A DNA stretch of 12,825 nt. Source: a virus (taxonomy: Duplodnaviria > Heunggongvirae > Uroviricota > Caudoviricetes). Position numbers and translations under genes: made by a program. The notes beneath the pieces were generated by a model. It was not told the DNA's origin. It did not search any database and worked only from the letters and a program-made list of their open reading frames with translations. The stretch lies in the IMG/VR virus record IMGVR_UViG_2690316345_000017. One strand, written 5' to 3'. Positions within the stretch are counted from its first letter, which is position 1. Each line of letters starts with the position of its first letter. Positions 249-12,576 of this stretch are shown piece by piece.

Positions 249-7325
<7,077 letters not shown>

Positions 7326-7514
7326 GCTTACCTTCCCTGAACGAGCTAACATAAATGCGCCCTTTCTAGCACAGCGAAAAAATGTAAATACTGATAGCAA
7401 TATGATTGAAAATTAATAACTTTTCGTTAGGCAGTTTTGGGTGTGAGTTGCAAGAGGGGAGACTACTGAATAACTCAAGTTTTATAATCGAGGGGAAAAT
7501 GGTGATGGCGTTCA

Positions 7515-7638: not shown

Positions 7639-7714
7639 TGGCTCCTCTGACTGGACTCGAACCAGTGACATACGGATTAACAGTCCGCCGTTCTACCGAC
7701 TGAACTACAGAGGA
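7639..7714 (-). tRNA. asnT: tRNA-Asn (anticodon GUU)
   Basis: Reverse complement of 7639..7714 is TCCTCTGTAGTTCAGTCGGTAGAACGGCGGACTGTTAATCCGTATGTCACTGGTTCGAGTCCAGTCAGAGGAGCCA, 76 nt with encoded CCA, which I recognise as canonical E. coli tRNA-Asn. Anticodon loop CUGUUAA. The symbol asnT is assigned from its position between mtfA and yeeJ. Confidence 0.96.
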
Positions 7715-7814: not shown

Positions 7815-8612
7815 TTAATGAACATTCGTCGCCGAAAACGAGTCTGTATCATTAGCGTGATGCAGTCTCTGCAAAGGATCTTGTTGATAAAATTGGCAGA
7901 AACGTTGCCACAATGAAGGGAAACGAGGAGCAAAAAGTTCTGGGGCGCTAAAGAAATATTCAGAAAGTACGGCAAAACATTCAGCAGGATCGCTGGCTGC
8001 ATAAGCATCAATGCTCGCCGCATTCTCGCCAACCAATTCGATTTCTTCCTGAATGTTGTTCATTGCAGCATGAAGATCGTGTTCCCAGCCAGCAACCTCA
8101 CGCAACGGAATAAAGGGAACTCCGCTGGCGCGATCGCCGTTACGGGTGTCCAGCTTATGAGCGACTTCATGAATAATCAGGTTAAAACCAGAAGCATCAA
8201 AAGAATCTTGTATATCCAACCAGTTCAAAACGATAGGCCCTTGCTGCCAGCTCTGACCTGACTGAACAATACGTTGGTTATGCACCAGACCGATATCGTC
8301 TTCCCATTCATCATCGACCACAAATGGCGCAGGATAAATTAAGACTTCATGAAAACCATCCAGCCATTCCAGTCCTAACTCCAGAACGGGTAGGCAAAAT
8401 AGAAGTGCTATCCGGCAGCTTCTTAATGAATCCAGTTCAAAGCCCTGTAAAGGAACAAGCCGCTTTTGCTGTAAAAAACGTTCGGCAAGAGTGACTAATT
8501 TGCTTTGTTCCTGTTCCGTCAGACACGTTAAAAGGGGGATCGATAGTGCTTCCTGCCAGGGAAGGGCAGTTTGATGTGCTGATTCTTGTACTTTCCAGGG
8601 CCACTTAATCAT
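7815..8612 (-). CDS. mtfA: Mlc titration factor A; HEXXH zinc-dependent peptidase-like protein
   Basis: The track ORF starts at a GTG (8651). The ATG at 8610-8612 gives 265 aa beginning [28 protein letters not shown], matching my recollection of E. coli MtfA. It contains the HEVAH metallopeptidase motif. Confidence 0.92.
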
Positions 8613-8661
8613 CGTTTTGCTCGCAAACTCGTCACTTGAACAAAATTGCACGGACAGGGAC

Positions 8662-8705: not shown

Positions 8706-8795
8706 GGAGAGATGCCGGAGCGGCTGAACGGACCGGTCTCGAAAACCGGAGTGGGGGCAACTCCACCGGGGGTTCAAATCCCCCTCTCTCCGCCA
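8706..8795 (+). tRNA. serU: tRNA-Ser (anticodon CGA), class II tRNA with long variable arm
   Basis: GGAGAGATGCCGGAGCGGCTGAACGGACCGGTCTCGAAAACCGGAGTGGGGGCAACTCCACCGGGGGTTCAAATCCCCCTCTCTCCGCCA, 90 nt. The 7-bp acceptor stem pairs perfectly, discriminator G, encoded CCA. Anticodon loop CUCGAAA gives anticodon CGA. Divergent from mtfA, as I recall for serU in E. coli. Confidence 0.96.
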
Positions 8796-8840
8796 AAATT
8801 CAATCACTTACACATCATTAAGTCAGTGACAAAAATCACA

Positions 8841-8877
8841 CTTGGAATTACTTGGAATATTTTCTTGGAATATTTTC
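8841..8877 (+). repeat. Tandem direct repeats (CTTGGAAT x3; 13-bp unit CTTGGAATATTTT x2) at the int 3' end; candidate integrase arm-type (P') sites
   Basis: CTTGGAATTA (8841-8850), then CTTGGAATATTTT (8851-8863) and CTTGGAATATTTT (8864-8876). They sit 46-82 bp from the tRNA 3' end and overlap the last int codons (NIPRKYSK) and stop. This is where P' arm sites are expected in an attL. Confidence 0.45.
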
Positions 8878-9873
8878 AGGTAACGGGACATCAAGTGTTG
8901 GTGAAACTTTAACCTTCCTGTCATAGATTAGCACTTGCCCTTCGGTTTTGTGACCAGAGAAAAGTTGCTTATCCCGGCTGCTTCCTTCATAGTCTGAAAT
9001 TCCTTTCGCCTTCAGATCATGAAAGGTGAAGTCGGTTAAAATACCTGAAATTTTTCCAGCACGATTTCTTGCATCTACCCACATTTCGTTAAAGCCTTTG
9101 TACATATATCGGTTGCCGTATTGATTGCTGATCACATAGGCAGATTTTGGTAACTGTTTTGCTTTTTCGATCGCTGCCTGTAATCGTGGACTCCATGCTT
9201 TTATCTGTTTTTTTCCGGTTTTCCCTTGCTGGATGAATATCCCGTCGTTTCCAATCTGTTCCCATTTCAGCGATAACACATCGGAAACCCTCGCTGCACA
9301 CAGATAGGCAATTTCCATTGCGATAAAAACAGGAAGAGGTGCAACGCTTAATACTGCCTGGTATTCTTTGTCGGTTACATATCGTTCGCGGTTTTTGGCC
9401 TTGAATTTACTTACACCTGCACATGGGTTAGCCTTCACGTACCCTCGCTCATACCCCCAACTGTAAACACGGGACATACTGCTTTTTTCATGGTTGGCTT
9501 GCGTTTTACTCTGCTCCCCTCTTTTGTCCATGTATCGACGGATGTGTTCTGGTTTTATGGAATCCGCTGGTACCTTACCGAATACGGCAAGCAACTTTTT
9601 TTGATGTTGCAGATAATCTTTTTGTGTTCTTGGACTAAGGTCACTGTAATAGGCGCTGGCGAGGAATTTTTCCCACAAGCGACCGAATGTCATTGCACGA
9701 TCGCGATTATTTACAGTTTCCTCATACTTTTTCCATAAAGCAGCTAAACCATCCTTGATGGCGGTTAGTGTGACAGATTCTCTGGATGTTGGTTTCCATA
9801 CATAACTATATTTATTTGGGTATACATTTGGAGGTAATTTTTCGTGTTCAGGATTTTTCCTTCGTCTTCCCAT
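8848..9873 (-). CDS. int: Phage integrase, tyrosine recombinase of the lambda Int family
   Basis: 341 aa. N-terminus MGRRRKNPEHEKLPPNVY resembles lambda Int (MGRRRSHERRDLPPNLY). Box I AARVSDVLSLKW, QQGKTGKK (lambda K235 region), HDLKAKGISDY (lambda HELRSLSARLY), and GHKTEGQVLIY with the catalytic Tyr. Adjacent to the tRNA 3' end. Confidence 0.95.
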   Translation of the reverse strand: MGRRRKNPEHEKLPPNVYPNKYSYVWKPTSRESVTLTAIKDGLAALWKKYEETVNNRDRAMTFGRLWEKFLASAYYSDLSPRTQKDYLQHQKKLLAVFGKVPADSIKPEHIRRYMDKRGEQSKTQANHEKSSMSRVYSWGYERGYVKANPCAGVSKFKAKNRERYVTDKEYQAVLSVAPLPVFIAMEIAYLCAARVSDVLSLKWEQIGNDGIFIQQGKTGKKQIKAWSPRLQAAIEKAKQLPKSAYVISNQYGNRYMYKGFNEMWVDARNRAGKISGILTDFTFHDLKAKGISDYEGSSRDKQLFSGHKTEGQVLIYDRKVKVSPTLDVPLPENIPRKYSK

Positions 9874-10076
9874 CAGATCGCACCAAAATTCGGCTCTACC
9901 TCGCGTGGTGGTAAAGTTTTATTGCAGGTAAATAGATCCCGGCTGACAATCGGTTTGCCACTACGATTGGTATAGAACGGAAGCCCGTTTTCCATTAACC
10001 ATTTTCGCTGGTGGCTTGCATATTTGCAGCCCGTTAATATTAGCAATTCATCTTCGGTTAAAAATAAGCTGCTCAT
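9873..10076 (-). CDS. xis: Small DUF4224-like protein, putative excisionase / recombination directionality factor
   Basis: 67 aa (MSSLFLTEDELLILTGCKYASHQRKWLMENGLPFYTNRSGKPIVSRDLF...), matching the DUF4224 pattern as I recall it. Its stop overlaps the int start (TGATG at 9871-9875), suggesting translational coupling. Position immediately upstream of int is typical for xis. Confidence 0.65.
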   Translation of the reverse strand: MSSLFLTEDELLILTGCKYASHQRKWLMENGLPFYTNRSGKPIVSRDLFTCNKTLPPREVEPNFGAI

Positions 10077-10093
10077 AGCTATATCTCATAACC

Positions 10094-10119
10094 GCCGCTA
10101 ACTATATACGGTTAGCGGC
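10094..10119. promoter_or_regulatory. Perfect 9-bp inverted repeat GCCGCTAAC-N8-GTTAGCGGC between the exonuclease-like gene and xis
   Basis: Seen directly: GCCGCTAAC (10094-10102), spacer TATATACG, GTTAGCGGC (10111-10119). No flanking U-tract on either strand, so not a typical intrinsic terminator. It ends about 17 nt upstream of the xis start codon. Function unknown (operator, RNA stem-loop or processing site). Confidence 0.35.
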
Positions 10120-10134
10120 AATTAGGGTTGAACA

Positions 10135-12576
10135 TTAAAAATCAGCCTGACTCGGGATCAGTTTTTGCCAGATAGCTGAAACGTATTTTGCCTGGTAACG
10201 AGCGTCATCAAGTGCATTATGGCGCTCACCTTCGAATGGAATAGCCGTTCTGGCATCGAAGTCTATGGCTTTCCCCAGCTCAACGATTGTGCGTACATCG
10301 CGATCGTTGTAGTAACGCCACGGGCAGGGGATCCCCTGCCGTTCGTATGAACGGCGCAAAATCGTGTTGTCGAAGTTGGCTCCATTTCCCCAGACCTGAA
10401 CAAAAAATTCACCGGAGTTTTCGTCGATAAATTCCCGCAATTGTAACAGTGCATCATCTAACGGGATTTCATCGGTCATAATGGCAGATTGCGCTTCGCG
10501 TGATTGCTTAAGCCACCATTTAATGGTGTCCCGATCAATGACTCCGCCAGCAGTTTCCAGATCGATAGTCTTACTAAATTCCGGTCCCATATCTCCGGTT
10601 TGCGGATCGAAAAATATTGCACCTATTGAGATGATCGGGGCATCAGGATTTTTTCCCATGGTTTCAAGGTCGATCATTAGATGGTCACACGTCCTGCTGG
10701 TGGATGTGATTTCGTGATGACCGTTCACCTTAATTGAGCGATCTGCCGTCTCGCCAGTTTTATTATCGCTGGCGTGATGCTGATTGCCGCCAGGGTTCTC
10801 CTTGTGTGGATGTTCAGCGTCTTCCATTTCCTCCGGATCATTTTCCTGAACTTCAACCTGATTCTCTTCATCGAATGTTTCCTGGTATGTTGCGTCGCCC
10901 ATCACCGCGCCACAATCAGGGCAGTTGCCGCCACCGCTCTGACCGCAGGCGGTGCAGACTTTTTCCGGTTCCTGTTGCGCTACTGGTTCGGATTGTTTCG
11001 TTTCTGGCTCGTTTTGTAACGCATTTGGGCTGTTTTGTTCCGCTTTTTGGTCGTTCCGTTCCGATTCATGCTGGTTCTGGTTCACAGAATCGCGAGTCTG
11101 GATCCCCTTGACCCATTTCGGATCATTAGGGTCGCTAATCCCCTCAACAAATTCACCACGCGATACAGCAAGTAACTTATCGGCGTCAGGCTGGCTGATA
11201 TTGGCTGCCTGCATAATTTTGTTTACTTCGTCAGCGGTGACTTTTACTTGGTTAGCGGAACTCACCTGCGACTGAGCATCCAGCGACTGCGCGTTCTGGC
11301 CATGTTCAGTTGTATCCGGTTCCATTGTTTCAGTTGTTGCCTGTTCACCTGCCATTGCGTCAGATGGTTGTGGTTTTTCTTCTTCTGTTTCACGCTCAGT
11401 AACCACCTCGCGGTTAATTTCTTCCAGGATATCTTTTTCCGGCGTATGCCGGGCAGCTGTGAGAGTTTCCTTGCTGGGGTTCTCGTGATCAGTTTCCGTC
11501 AAATAGGCGTTGATATACCCCTGAAGGCGTCCCGGGTAGTGATAAAATTCAGGGTGTGCGCTTCGGATAAGTGCAAAAATAGCGGCGCGGGAATAGTCCA
11601 GAATACCCGGGGTTGCACGAAGTGCTGCGGACCATTCTTTGAACGGACTTTCTTTGTTCAGGACTACTTCTTTTGCGCGACGATAAATGCTGCCCGGAAT
11701 TTCATAAATATTAAAATCCATCGGAAGTGTGGCTGCTGCAATCTCCACATCCAGTGTGTCGAGGGTGTGTACTAAATTCGGATTGCGATCGGTTTTGTTC
11801 CCACCGCCAGCATTAGCACCGGAAGCCGTGCGGGTGATGCGTGAAACACGATTTCCTTTCATCCACTCTTTTGTCAGCAGACCCCGATCAGTGTAGTCAG
11901 CGTCCAGGTATGCTTCGAAAAAAGCAGTTATTAGGCCCAGGTCTGAATTACCAGGATTAGGGAAAACTTTGTCAGTGTCACGAACCAGTTTGTGGAGGTC
12001 GCGAATCTCCAGCGAGTCGAGCAGACTGGTTTTATGCGAAATAGCCAGGGCAGTAACAGCCGGTAGTTCTTCAGCCCGTGCAATGTGTAATGCCTGGAGT
12101 TCGTCGCGTGAAACGTGCGTTACTGGTTTTTCGCTGCCGTGTTGAGCAAGCCAACGAATGGGCAGTTCCTGACCGGAGACAGGCAGAAGCATGCTCTCCT
12201 CAATCTCAGTCATGTCTTCGCCGTTGATGTTGGTATTGTCAGTGCTGGCTGGTTTGTCCTGAACAGAGGGGGAAGGGCCGATAAATGTCATTGTGATGCC
12301 ATCTTTCCCGCCTTTTTCATAGCGGTTGCAGAATTCAGTATCAAACACGCCTTCTGGCGGAAGGTCGTCAACAACGGGCAAATTGACGCGGACGGGTTTT
12401 TTAAAGTCGTCTTCATCATAATCGTTGTCATCCATTGCGGTAATGCAGCGGGAGATTGCAACAGATAATTTTTTTGCTGTAGTCCAGTAAAAACCACCTT
12501 TAATTCCCAGGCGTTTTCTTACTTTGTCATTTTTTGCTTCGCAATATAGTGCAAATTCTTCTTTATCAGTGCTCAT
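10135..12576 (-). CDS. Prophage RecE-like ('exodeoxyribonuclease VIII'-type) protein: RecE N-terminal-like region, acidic linker with CxxC-x7-CxxC zinc ribbon, C-terminal DEDDh (DnaQ-like) 3'-5' exonuclease domain
   Basis: 813 aa, ATG start with GAGG about 10 nt upstream. Residues ~115-400 ([41 protein letters not shown]...) resemble what I recall of the Rac RecE N-terminal region. Residues ~400-625 are acidic/Q-rich low complexity containing [16 protein letters not shown]. The C-terminus carries DEDDh motifs: LMIDLETMG (Exo I), [13 protein letters not shown] (Exo II), HNALDDARY (Exo III). Confidence 0.85.

Follow-up and report, generated by a model that had tools for sequence, protein, structure and literature searches.

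Why should the 3' end of a prophage integrase gene carry three copies of one short sequence beside a tRNA gene, and which protein, if any, reads them? The question is raised by IMG/VR virus record IMGVR_UViG_2690316345_000017, a 12,825-bp stretch of Caudoviricetes DNA (the window). The window contains attL, the left junction between a lambdoid prophage and serU, the gene for tRNA-Ser(CGA) into which it is inserted, and the repeats, copies of the octamer CTTGGAAT, lie where the integrase gene (int) ends next to serU. An earlier interpretation of the letters of this DNA (the sequence-only reading) had suggested that they are arm-type sites of the integrase (Int), arranged like P'1–P'3 of phage lambda. 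Motif copies at the opposite end of the prophage and a layout conserved in relatives support this suggestion, and we consider it highly probable that the three CTTGGAAT(A) repeats at 8841–8872 serve the prophage Int as its P' arm-type binding sites.

Five copies of one motif in the rebuilt attachment site

CTTGGAAT occurs exactly three times in the window, at 8841–8848, 8851–8858 and 8864–8871, always on the plus strand and with start-to-start distances of 10 and 13 bp. Shuffled versions of the window contain 0.54 copies on average, and the three observed copies all fall within 31 bp, located 46–81 bp beyond the serU 3' end. A 9-nt form, ACTTGGAAT, is repeated at 8840 and 8850, and a perfect 13-bp tandem of CTTGGAATATTTT occupies 8851–8863 and 8864–8876. 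The TAA stop codon of int is found at 8848–8850; copies 2 and 3 encode the end of the protein (...NIPRKYSK*), whereas copy 1 comes immediately after the coding sequence and overlaps the stop by a single base. The sequence-only reading had described three copies, two of them as a 13-bp tandem encoding NIPRKYSK, and is borne out here, including the distance from the tRNA.

Attachment-site positions are numbered from the anticodon CGA (8740–8742), with position 0 at its G. On this scale, the P'1-like candidate site, CTTGGAATT, spans +100 to +108 (8841–8849, just past the int stop, with a site at the same position in relatives), while the P'2-like and P'3-like candidates, both CTTGGAATA, span +110 to +118 (8851–8859) and +123 to +131 (8864–8872) inside the last int codons. 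All three are on the plus strand. In allele A34, the first base of the P'3-like site is G.

The opposite end (attR) was taken from a prophage in NZ_CP020509.1 that is 100% identical to the window over 8780–10100. The right end of this prophage lies between a tail-fibre assembly gene and yodB, and its attR holds a copy of the tRNA from CGGTCTCGAAAACCGG through the CCA end. The phage attachment site (attP) was rebuilt by joining the left arm of attR to the right arm of the window. The attR arm contains exact CTTGGAATA, direct at -119 and inverted at -55 to -47, so that CTTGGAAT(A) is exact at five attP positions: -119, -54 (inverted), +100, +110 and +123. The chance expectation for an 8-mer, scaled from the window shuffles, is ~0.008 per 200-bp arm. 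The search of the attR side that the sequence-only reading had proposed as a check of its idea therefore returned exact CTTGGAAT matches in both orientations. Among diverged serU prophages, the P arm becomes homologous ~10 bp to the outer side of the P1-like site; from there inwards the core and both the P1-like and P2-like blocks are invariant, and the spacers vary. Two near-copies further out, at -341 (ATTGGAATA) and -794, were rejected as sites, lying outside the conserved P-arm block, whose homology begins at about -202 or -130.

The rebuilt attP was compared with six phage attachment sites from genomes whose encoded Int is 48–61% identical. These sites keep the five-site layout almost to the base pair (within 1–3 bp) and carry other motifs, which is the outcome that a comparison of related attachment regions, also proposed by the sequence-only reading, would give for arm-type sites. 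In Salmonella phage 118970_sal3, TGAGAAAA is found at -117, -54 (inverted), +101, +111 and +124, all non-coding, with the int stop ~40 bp beyond. BUCT709 carries CTTAGAAT at +100, +111 and +124 and a near-copy at -53 (inverted); mEp390 carries CGCCATT at -119, -57 (inverted), +126, +133 and +144. In Klebsiella Kp4885-3/ST101-KPC2phi6.3, TGAGAAAA is present three times in the P' arm, and once direct and once inverted in the P arm. Phage Evi carries TTGGTATA at -118, +100, +111 and +123, with int on the opposite side of the core. The sister sites are like the window phage in having direct copies at about -118, +100, +110/111 and +123/124 and an inverted copy at about -54, and in an excisionase (Xis) that is also a DUF4224 protein. 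They differ in their arm motifs, in repeats that are mostly non-coding and, in some of them, in their tRNA targets: Ser-UGA in Evi and BUCT709, and another tRNA 3' fragment in mEp390.

In Evi (locus L006, 2520–2810), the entire attachment module, tRNA fragment and arm sites together, is inverted relative to int when compared with the window phage, and for this reason int adjoins the P1-type arm.

The pattern is also seen across the family. Eighty genomic relatives were scanned de novo for exact 7-mer triples downstream of int, and 29 of them have one; none appeared in 1600 shuffles (0/1600) or in the int-coding control (0/80). The triples are spaced by 10 or 11 and then 13 bp in 27 of the 29, the remaining two having 11+11 and 10+12. 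Their motifs vary by clade and include CTTGGAAT, CTTAGAAT, TTGGTATA, TGAGAAAA, TTCAGAAT, TTCCTAAT, TTCACTAT, TTTCGCCA and others. Triples of T(T/G)TCACTAT, essentially the lambda arm sequence, lie downstream of int with the same 11+13 spacing in Providencia (L055) and Xenorhabdus (L083).

Int as the probable reader of the motif, and the overlap with its gene

The int gene (8848–9873, minus strand) encodes a lambda-type tyrosine integrase of 341 aa, whose N-terminus forms an arm-binding domain. The protein matches Pfam PF00589 and PF22022, and its phmmer alignment with lambda Int (1z1b) starts at residue 1 (MGRRR...LPPN(V/L)Y; E = 1e-12). The AlphaFold2 model (mean predicted local distance difference test score, pLDDT, 86.9) predicts strands at residues 17–19, 23–26 and 34–38 and a helix at 43–59 with pLDDT ~88, a strand-strand-strand-helix order that we take to be the arm-binding fold known from structures of the lambda Int N-domain. 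The top Foldseek matches of the model are full-length lambda Int chains (1z1b; ~361 aligned columns, E = 1e-16). The pLDDT is low beyond about residue 320. RefSeq labels int 'frameshifted' in EDL933 (L009, 194–1241) and O121 (L012, 194–1244), although attL and the int 3' end are identical to those of the window; the label may reflect comparison with a longer, 359-aa form or a frameshift elsewhere in int.

The neighbouring 67-aa protein (9873–10076, minus strand), whose stop overlaps the int start, matches Pfam PF13986 (DUF4224). Its homologue is annotated 'putative excisionase' in mEp390 and 'excisionase' in 118970_sal3, and the protein is presumed to be the excisionase, a recombination directionality factor. 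Xis-type proteins bind short direct repeats in attachment-site arms, and xis is co-inherited with int, so that the motif also shifts whenever Xis shifts; the repeats could then be sites of the DUF4224 protein, or of another phage-encoded accessory factor, and not of Int. The distribution of the motif speaks for Int. Lambda has its Xis sites on the P arm only, whereas the window motif is present on both arms in the P1/P2/P'1–3 pattern of Int, and three of its copies stay at attL beside int, on the arm that has no Xis sites in lambda. The similarity of the motif tracks the N-terminal beta-sheet of Int and not the rest of Int or Xis. The identity of this sheet (residues 13–40) to that of the window Int is 57% in BUCT709 and 50% in Evi, whose motifs are each 1 nt from CTTGGAAT(A), and 22% in sal3 and 25% in mEp390, whose motifs are unrelated. 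Outside the sheet, BUCT709, with its near-identical motif, and sal3, with an unrelated one, score alike: each has 64–65% identity over the rest of Int and 40% in Xis. This comparison favours the Int N-domain as the part that reads the motif, ahead of Xis and of the catalytic domains, and we regard Xis or another accessory factor as a very unlikely reader.

The position of two repeats inside int allows a different account, in which coding, or replication slippage where int ends, has left the repeats as a by-product: the C-terminal tail would tolerate a tandem duplication that has no function at the DNA level. Two copies do form a perfect 13-bp tandem, and the number of units is polymorphic: E. 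coli O157:H7 SS17 (L011, 151–345) has one extra CTTGGAATATTTT unit, which raises the number of CTTGGAAT copies to four and shifts the int reading frame, so that Int has 359 aa and a new tail; slippage therefore occurs here. This form is present in ~65–78 of 1153 carrier genomes. The repeats, however, do not depend on being coding. Int sequence in the family is shared up to SPTLD and then diverges or ends, and the last ~13 residues of the window Int are an unconserved, low-confidence tail running through P'3 and P'2. In E. coli ECL27829, whose Int is 98% identical with an identical N-domain, int is ~1.1 kb from the repeats, and these stand in non-coding DNA. The lack of conservation and low model confidence of the tail, together with the non-coding repeats of ECL27829, mark the coding overlap as incidental: the open reading frame simply runs on across P'3 and P'2 until it meets a stop. 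The sequence-only reading had allowed that the repeats might turn out to be merely a conserved coding feature; they do not, and coding constraint as their origin is ruled out by the divergence of the tail together with the non-coding variants. The same motif is also present in non-coding DNA ~40 kb away at attR, in both orientations; the triple is wholly non-coding in 118970_sal3 and many relatives as well as in ECL27829; and the 10/11+13 spacing is kept across clades that have different motifs. A by-product of coding or slippage is, on this evidence, hardly credible, and arm-type sites remain the preferred explanation of the repeats.

Two observations concern this region of variants. Between P'3 and the int 3' end, ECL27829 (L017, 1560–2730) has acquired two cargo genes, one for an ImmA/IrrE-family metallopeptidase and one for a hypothetical protein, and the arm repeats are intact. 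The CTTGGAATATTTT unit might, in turn, act as a slippage-prone switch, whose gain or loss changes both the number of P' sites (3 or 4) and the Int tail (341 or 359 aa). We think such a switch unlikely; if real, it would heritably tune or disable prophage excision.

A second motif, AAGTCAGTGAC (8820–8830, plus strand), lies in the spacer between serU and the repeats. The sequence-only reading had noted its partial likeness to the lambda arm consensus (C/A)AGTCACTAT and offered it as another place where the Int N-domain could bind. Its position is confirmed, and the two sequences have AAGTCA in common, yet 3 of 10 consensus positions are mismatched. A (C)AGTGA(C/T) core is found at the same offset in four serU-type attachment sites, which might favour AAGTCAGTGAC, in place of CTTGGAAT, as the arm-type site. 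This core is also present, however, in phages with a different Int N-domain and arm motif, and therefore cannot be the specific target of the N-domain. AAGTCAGTGAC is a single copy: in a scan of the rebuilt attP that allowed up to 3 mismatches, neither arm yielded another sequence within 2 mismatches of it. Moreover, its AAGTCA part is replaced in ECL27829 despite the identical Int N-domain, GTGA alone being kept. We rejected AAGTCAGTGAC as an arm site on these grounds, and consider the chance that it takes the place of the CTTGGAAT repeats in that role to be extremely small.

Core, candidate bend sites and gene context

The prophage occupies a site that is empty in E. coli K-12, where the gene order around serU matches that of the window: yeeJ (249–7400), asnT (7639–7714) and mtfA (7815–8651), all on the minus strand, then serU (8706–8795, plus strand; called by ARAGORN), the integration target, and finally the end of the lambdoid prophage. 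On the phage side, int and the DUF4224 gene are followed by an exonuclease VIII-like gene (10135–12576, minus strand). The int region of the window is present in 1156 of 5426 complete E. coli genomes, about one fifth, including O157:H7 lineages.

The core or crossover region of attL, CGGTCTCGAAAACCGGAGT (8734–8752, plus strand), falls in the anticodon stem-loop, and identity between attL and attR begins at 8734. The K-12 empty site is identical to the right side of attR, and the first difference between phage and host (window versus K-12) is at 8753; the exchange is therefore placed 5' of 8753, within CGGTCTCGAAAACCGGAGT. In E. coli 2014C-3057 (L016, alignment A2 columns 250–372), this P arm and left core run directly into unrelated DNA that is not a tRNA gene right after CGGTCTCGAAA, in what looks like an insertion at a secondary site. 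Because this junction breaks right after CGGTCTCGAAA, the crossover is placed in the anticodon loop. The 3' part of serU is supplied by the phage in the lysogen. Positions 8753 and 8765 of the variable arm form a G..C pair in the window and an A..T pair in K-12 and the attR fragment. The phage-derived pair is a compensatory double change that alters the tRNA sequence and leaves the stem unbroken.

Three matches to the consensus of the integration host factor (IHF) are present in the phage. An exact match lies at -92 to -80 (minus strand), and two others have one mismatch each, at -37 to -25 (minus strand) and at +57 to +69 (plus strand). The last, ATTCAATCACTTA at 8798–8810, departs from WATCAANNNNTTR at one position and is on the same strand as lambda H'. 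The strands of the three are those of lambda H1, H2 and H', and the same scan recovers the lambda H1, H2 and H' sites exactly; the three are consensus matches only. Their positions recur in relatives: the H'-like site is found at the same position in 118970_sal3, Evi, ECL27829 and the Klebsiella attL, and the H2-like site is an exact consensus match in diverged P arms.

The rest of the spacer was screened for other signals. No terminator or promoter pattern was found in 8796–8850, and the RNA fold of this segment is no better than that of shuffles (z = -0.68), on which basis a hairpin or terminator there was discarded. GC-rich hairpins are present at the equivalent spacer in relatives and not in the window phage. 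The spacer does contain a palindrome, AGTGA-N6-TCACA (AGTGACAAAAATCACA, 8825–8840), that abuts P'1 and agrees at 9 of 10 positions with TGTGA-N6-TCACA, the consensus site of the cAMP receptor protein (CRP); noticed post hoc, it is the sole match in the window with at most one mismatch. Its half-sites are kept in ECL27829 and 118970_sal3 despite diverged flanks and lost in the Klebsiella attL.

A proposed lambda-type intasome and its known counterparts

The arrangement suggests how integration and excision may proceed. Int would act as a heterobivalent recombinase: its N-terminal domain, predicted to be a three-stranded sheet plus a helix, would bind the arm motif, and its C-terminal domains would act on the core in the anticodon stem-loop, both binding and cutting it. 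The attP would present five arm sites, P1 (-119, direct), P2 (-54, inverted) and P'1, P'2 and P'3 (+100, +110 and +123, direct). IHF-type bends at about -86, -31 and +63 would turn the arms back on themselves, allowing Int to span arm and core and an intasome to form. After integration, the three P' sites would stay with int at attL, and P1 and P2 would go to attR, ~40 kb away. In lambda, the division of the arm sites between integration and excision is established. By analogy, integration would use P1, P'2 and P'3, and excision, assisted by the DUF4224 Xis-like protein, P2, P'1 and P'2.

Several points weigh against assigning the repeats to Int. The Pfam model of the lambda arm-binding domain, PF09003, matches below threshold (15.7 bits against a cut-off of 22, residues 1–20 only, in a scan of the N-terminal 70 aa), so the assignment of this domain is based on the predicted structure and on the matches to full-length lambda Int. 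The attR was read from another genome with an identical attL/int segment and not from the genome of the window itself. No exact triple is present in 51 of the 80 genomic relatives; in these, the likely causes are an int that lies on the other arm, inserted cargo, degenerate sites or prophage decay. Xis is co-inherited with Int, so that covariation alone cannot fully separate the two proteins, and their discrimination rests on a handful of phages. The sites also stand elsewhere than in lambda: the P' sites are at +100 to +131 in the window phage versus +54 to +84, and P2 is at -54 versus about -108. These distances follow from a core that lies in the tRNA anticodon loop, and because they differ, the exact bridging geometry is not transferable from lambda. 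Finally, literature searches returned no binding or recombination experiment for this Int.

If the repeats are arm sites, the arm sites, the core and the likely IHF sites together would define the minimal attP, attL and attR for predicting or engineering integration and excision, and knowing these parts would help set prophage boundaries correctly. The fixed spacing (10/11+13 bp in the P' arm; direct at about -118 and inverted at about -54 in the P arm) combined with a changing motif makes the family a comparative data set on how lambda-type N-domains read DNA. Such a five-site scaffold with swappable motifs may serve as a natural read-out of the arm-recognition code of the N-domain, and the Int family could yield orthogonal pairs of Int and attachment site.

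The closest model is lambda itself, whose attP pattern was read directly from NC_001416. Both attP sites have five copies of a 9–10-bp motif unrelated to the core, with P1 direct, P2 inverted and P'1–3 direct, the last as three tandem sites beside the int 3' end; in lambda, it is P'3 that overlaps the int stop codon. In both, IHF consensus matches lie between arm and core sites, and xis is upstream and overlaps the int start; Int is homologous along its whole length, with a modelled N-domain of three strands and then a helix. The two differ in the motif, which is CTTGGAATA and not (C/A)AGTCACTAT, in the P' spacing (10+13 bp versus 10+11 in lambda) and in the number of sites inside the int coding sequence (two versus one). 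The window Xis is a DUF4224 protein and not lambda Xis, and the window Int is only ~20% identical to lambda Int.

The second counterpart is KplE1/HK620, in which the IntS-TorI system acts at argW and the P' arm-type Int sites of attL lie beside the tRNA 3' end, overlapping part of the integrase gene region (Panis et al. 2010, PMC2951348). The window shares with it a tRNA-inserted prophage and attL arm sites that overlap the integrase gene region. In KplE1, the arm sites overlap the intS promoter, resulting in negative autoregulation, and no autoregulation is predicted for a convergent orientation of int and tRNA (PMC2951348). In the window, by contrast, int converges on the tRNA (the 'OC' shape), and the sites overlap the 3' end and stop codon of the gene and not its promoter, so that autoregulation of int is not expected in this phage. 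A literature search for attachment or arm sites of serU prophages and for the motif string found no description, only general lambda and KplE1 papers. The arm sites of the window are a previously undescribed example of a well-known design, and they leave the understanding of its mechanism, as known from lambda and KplE1, unchanged.

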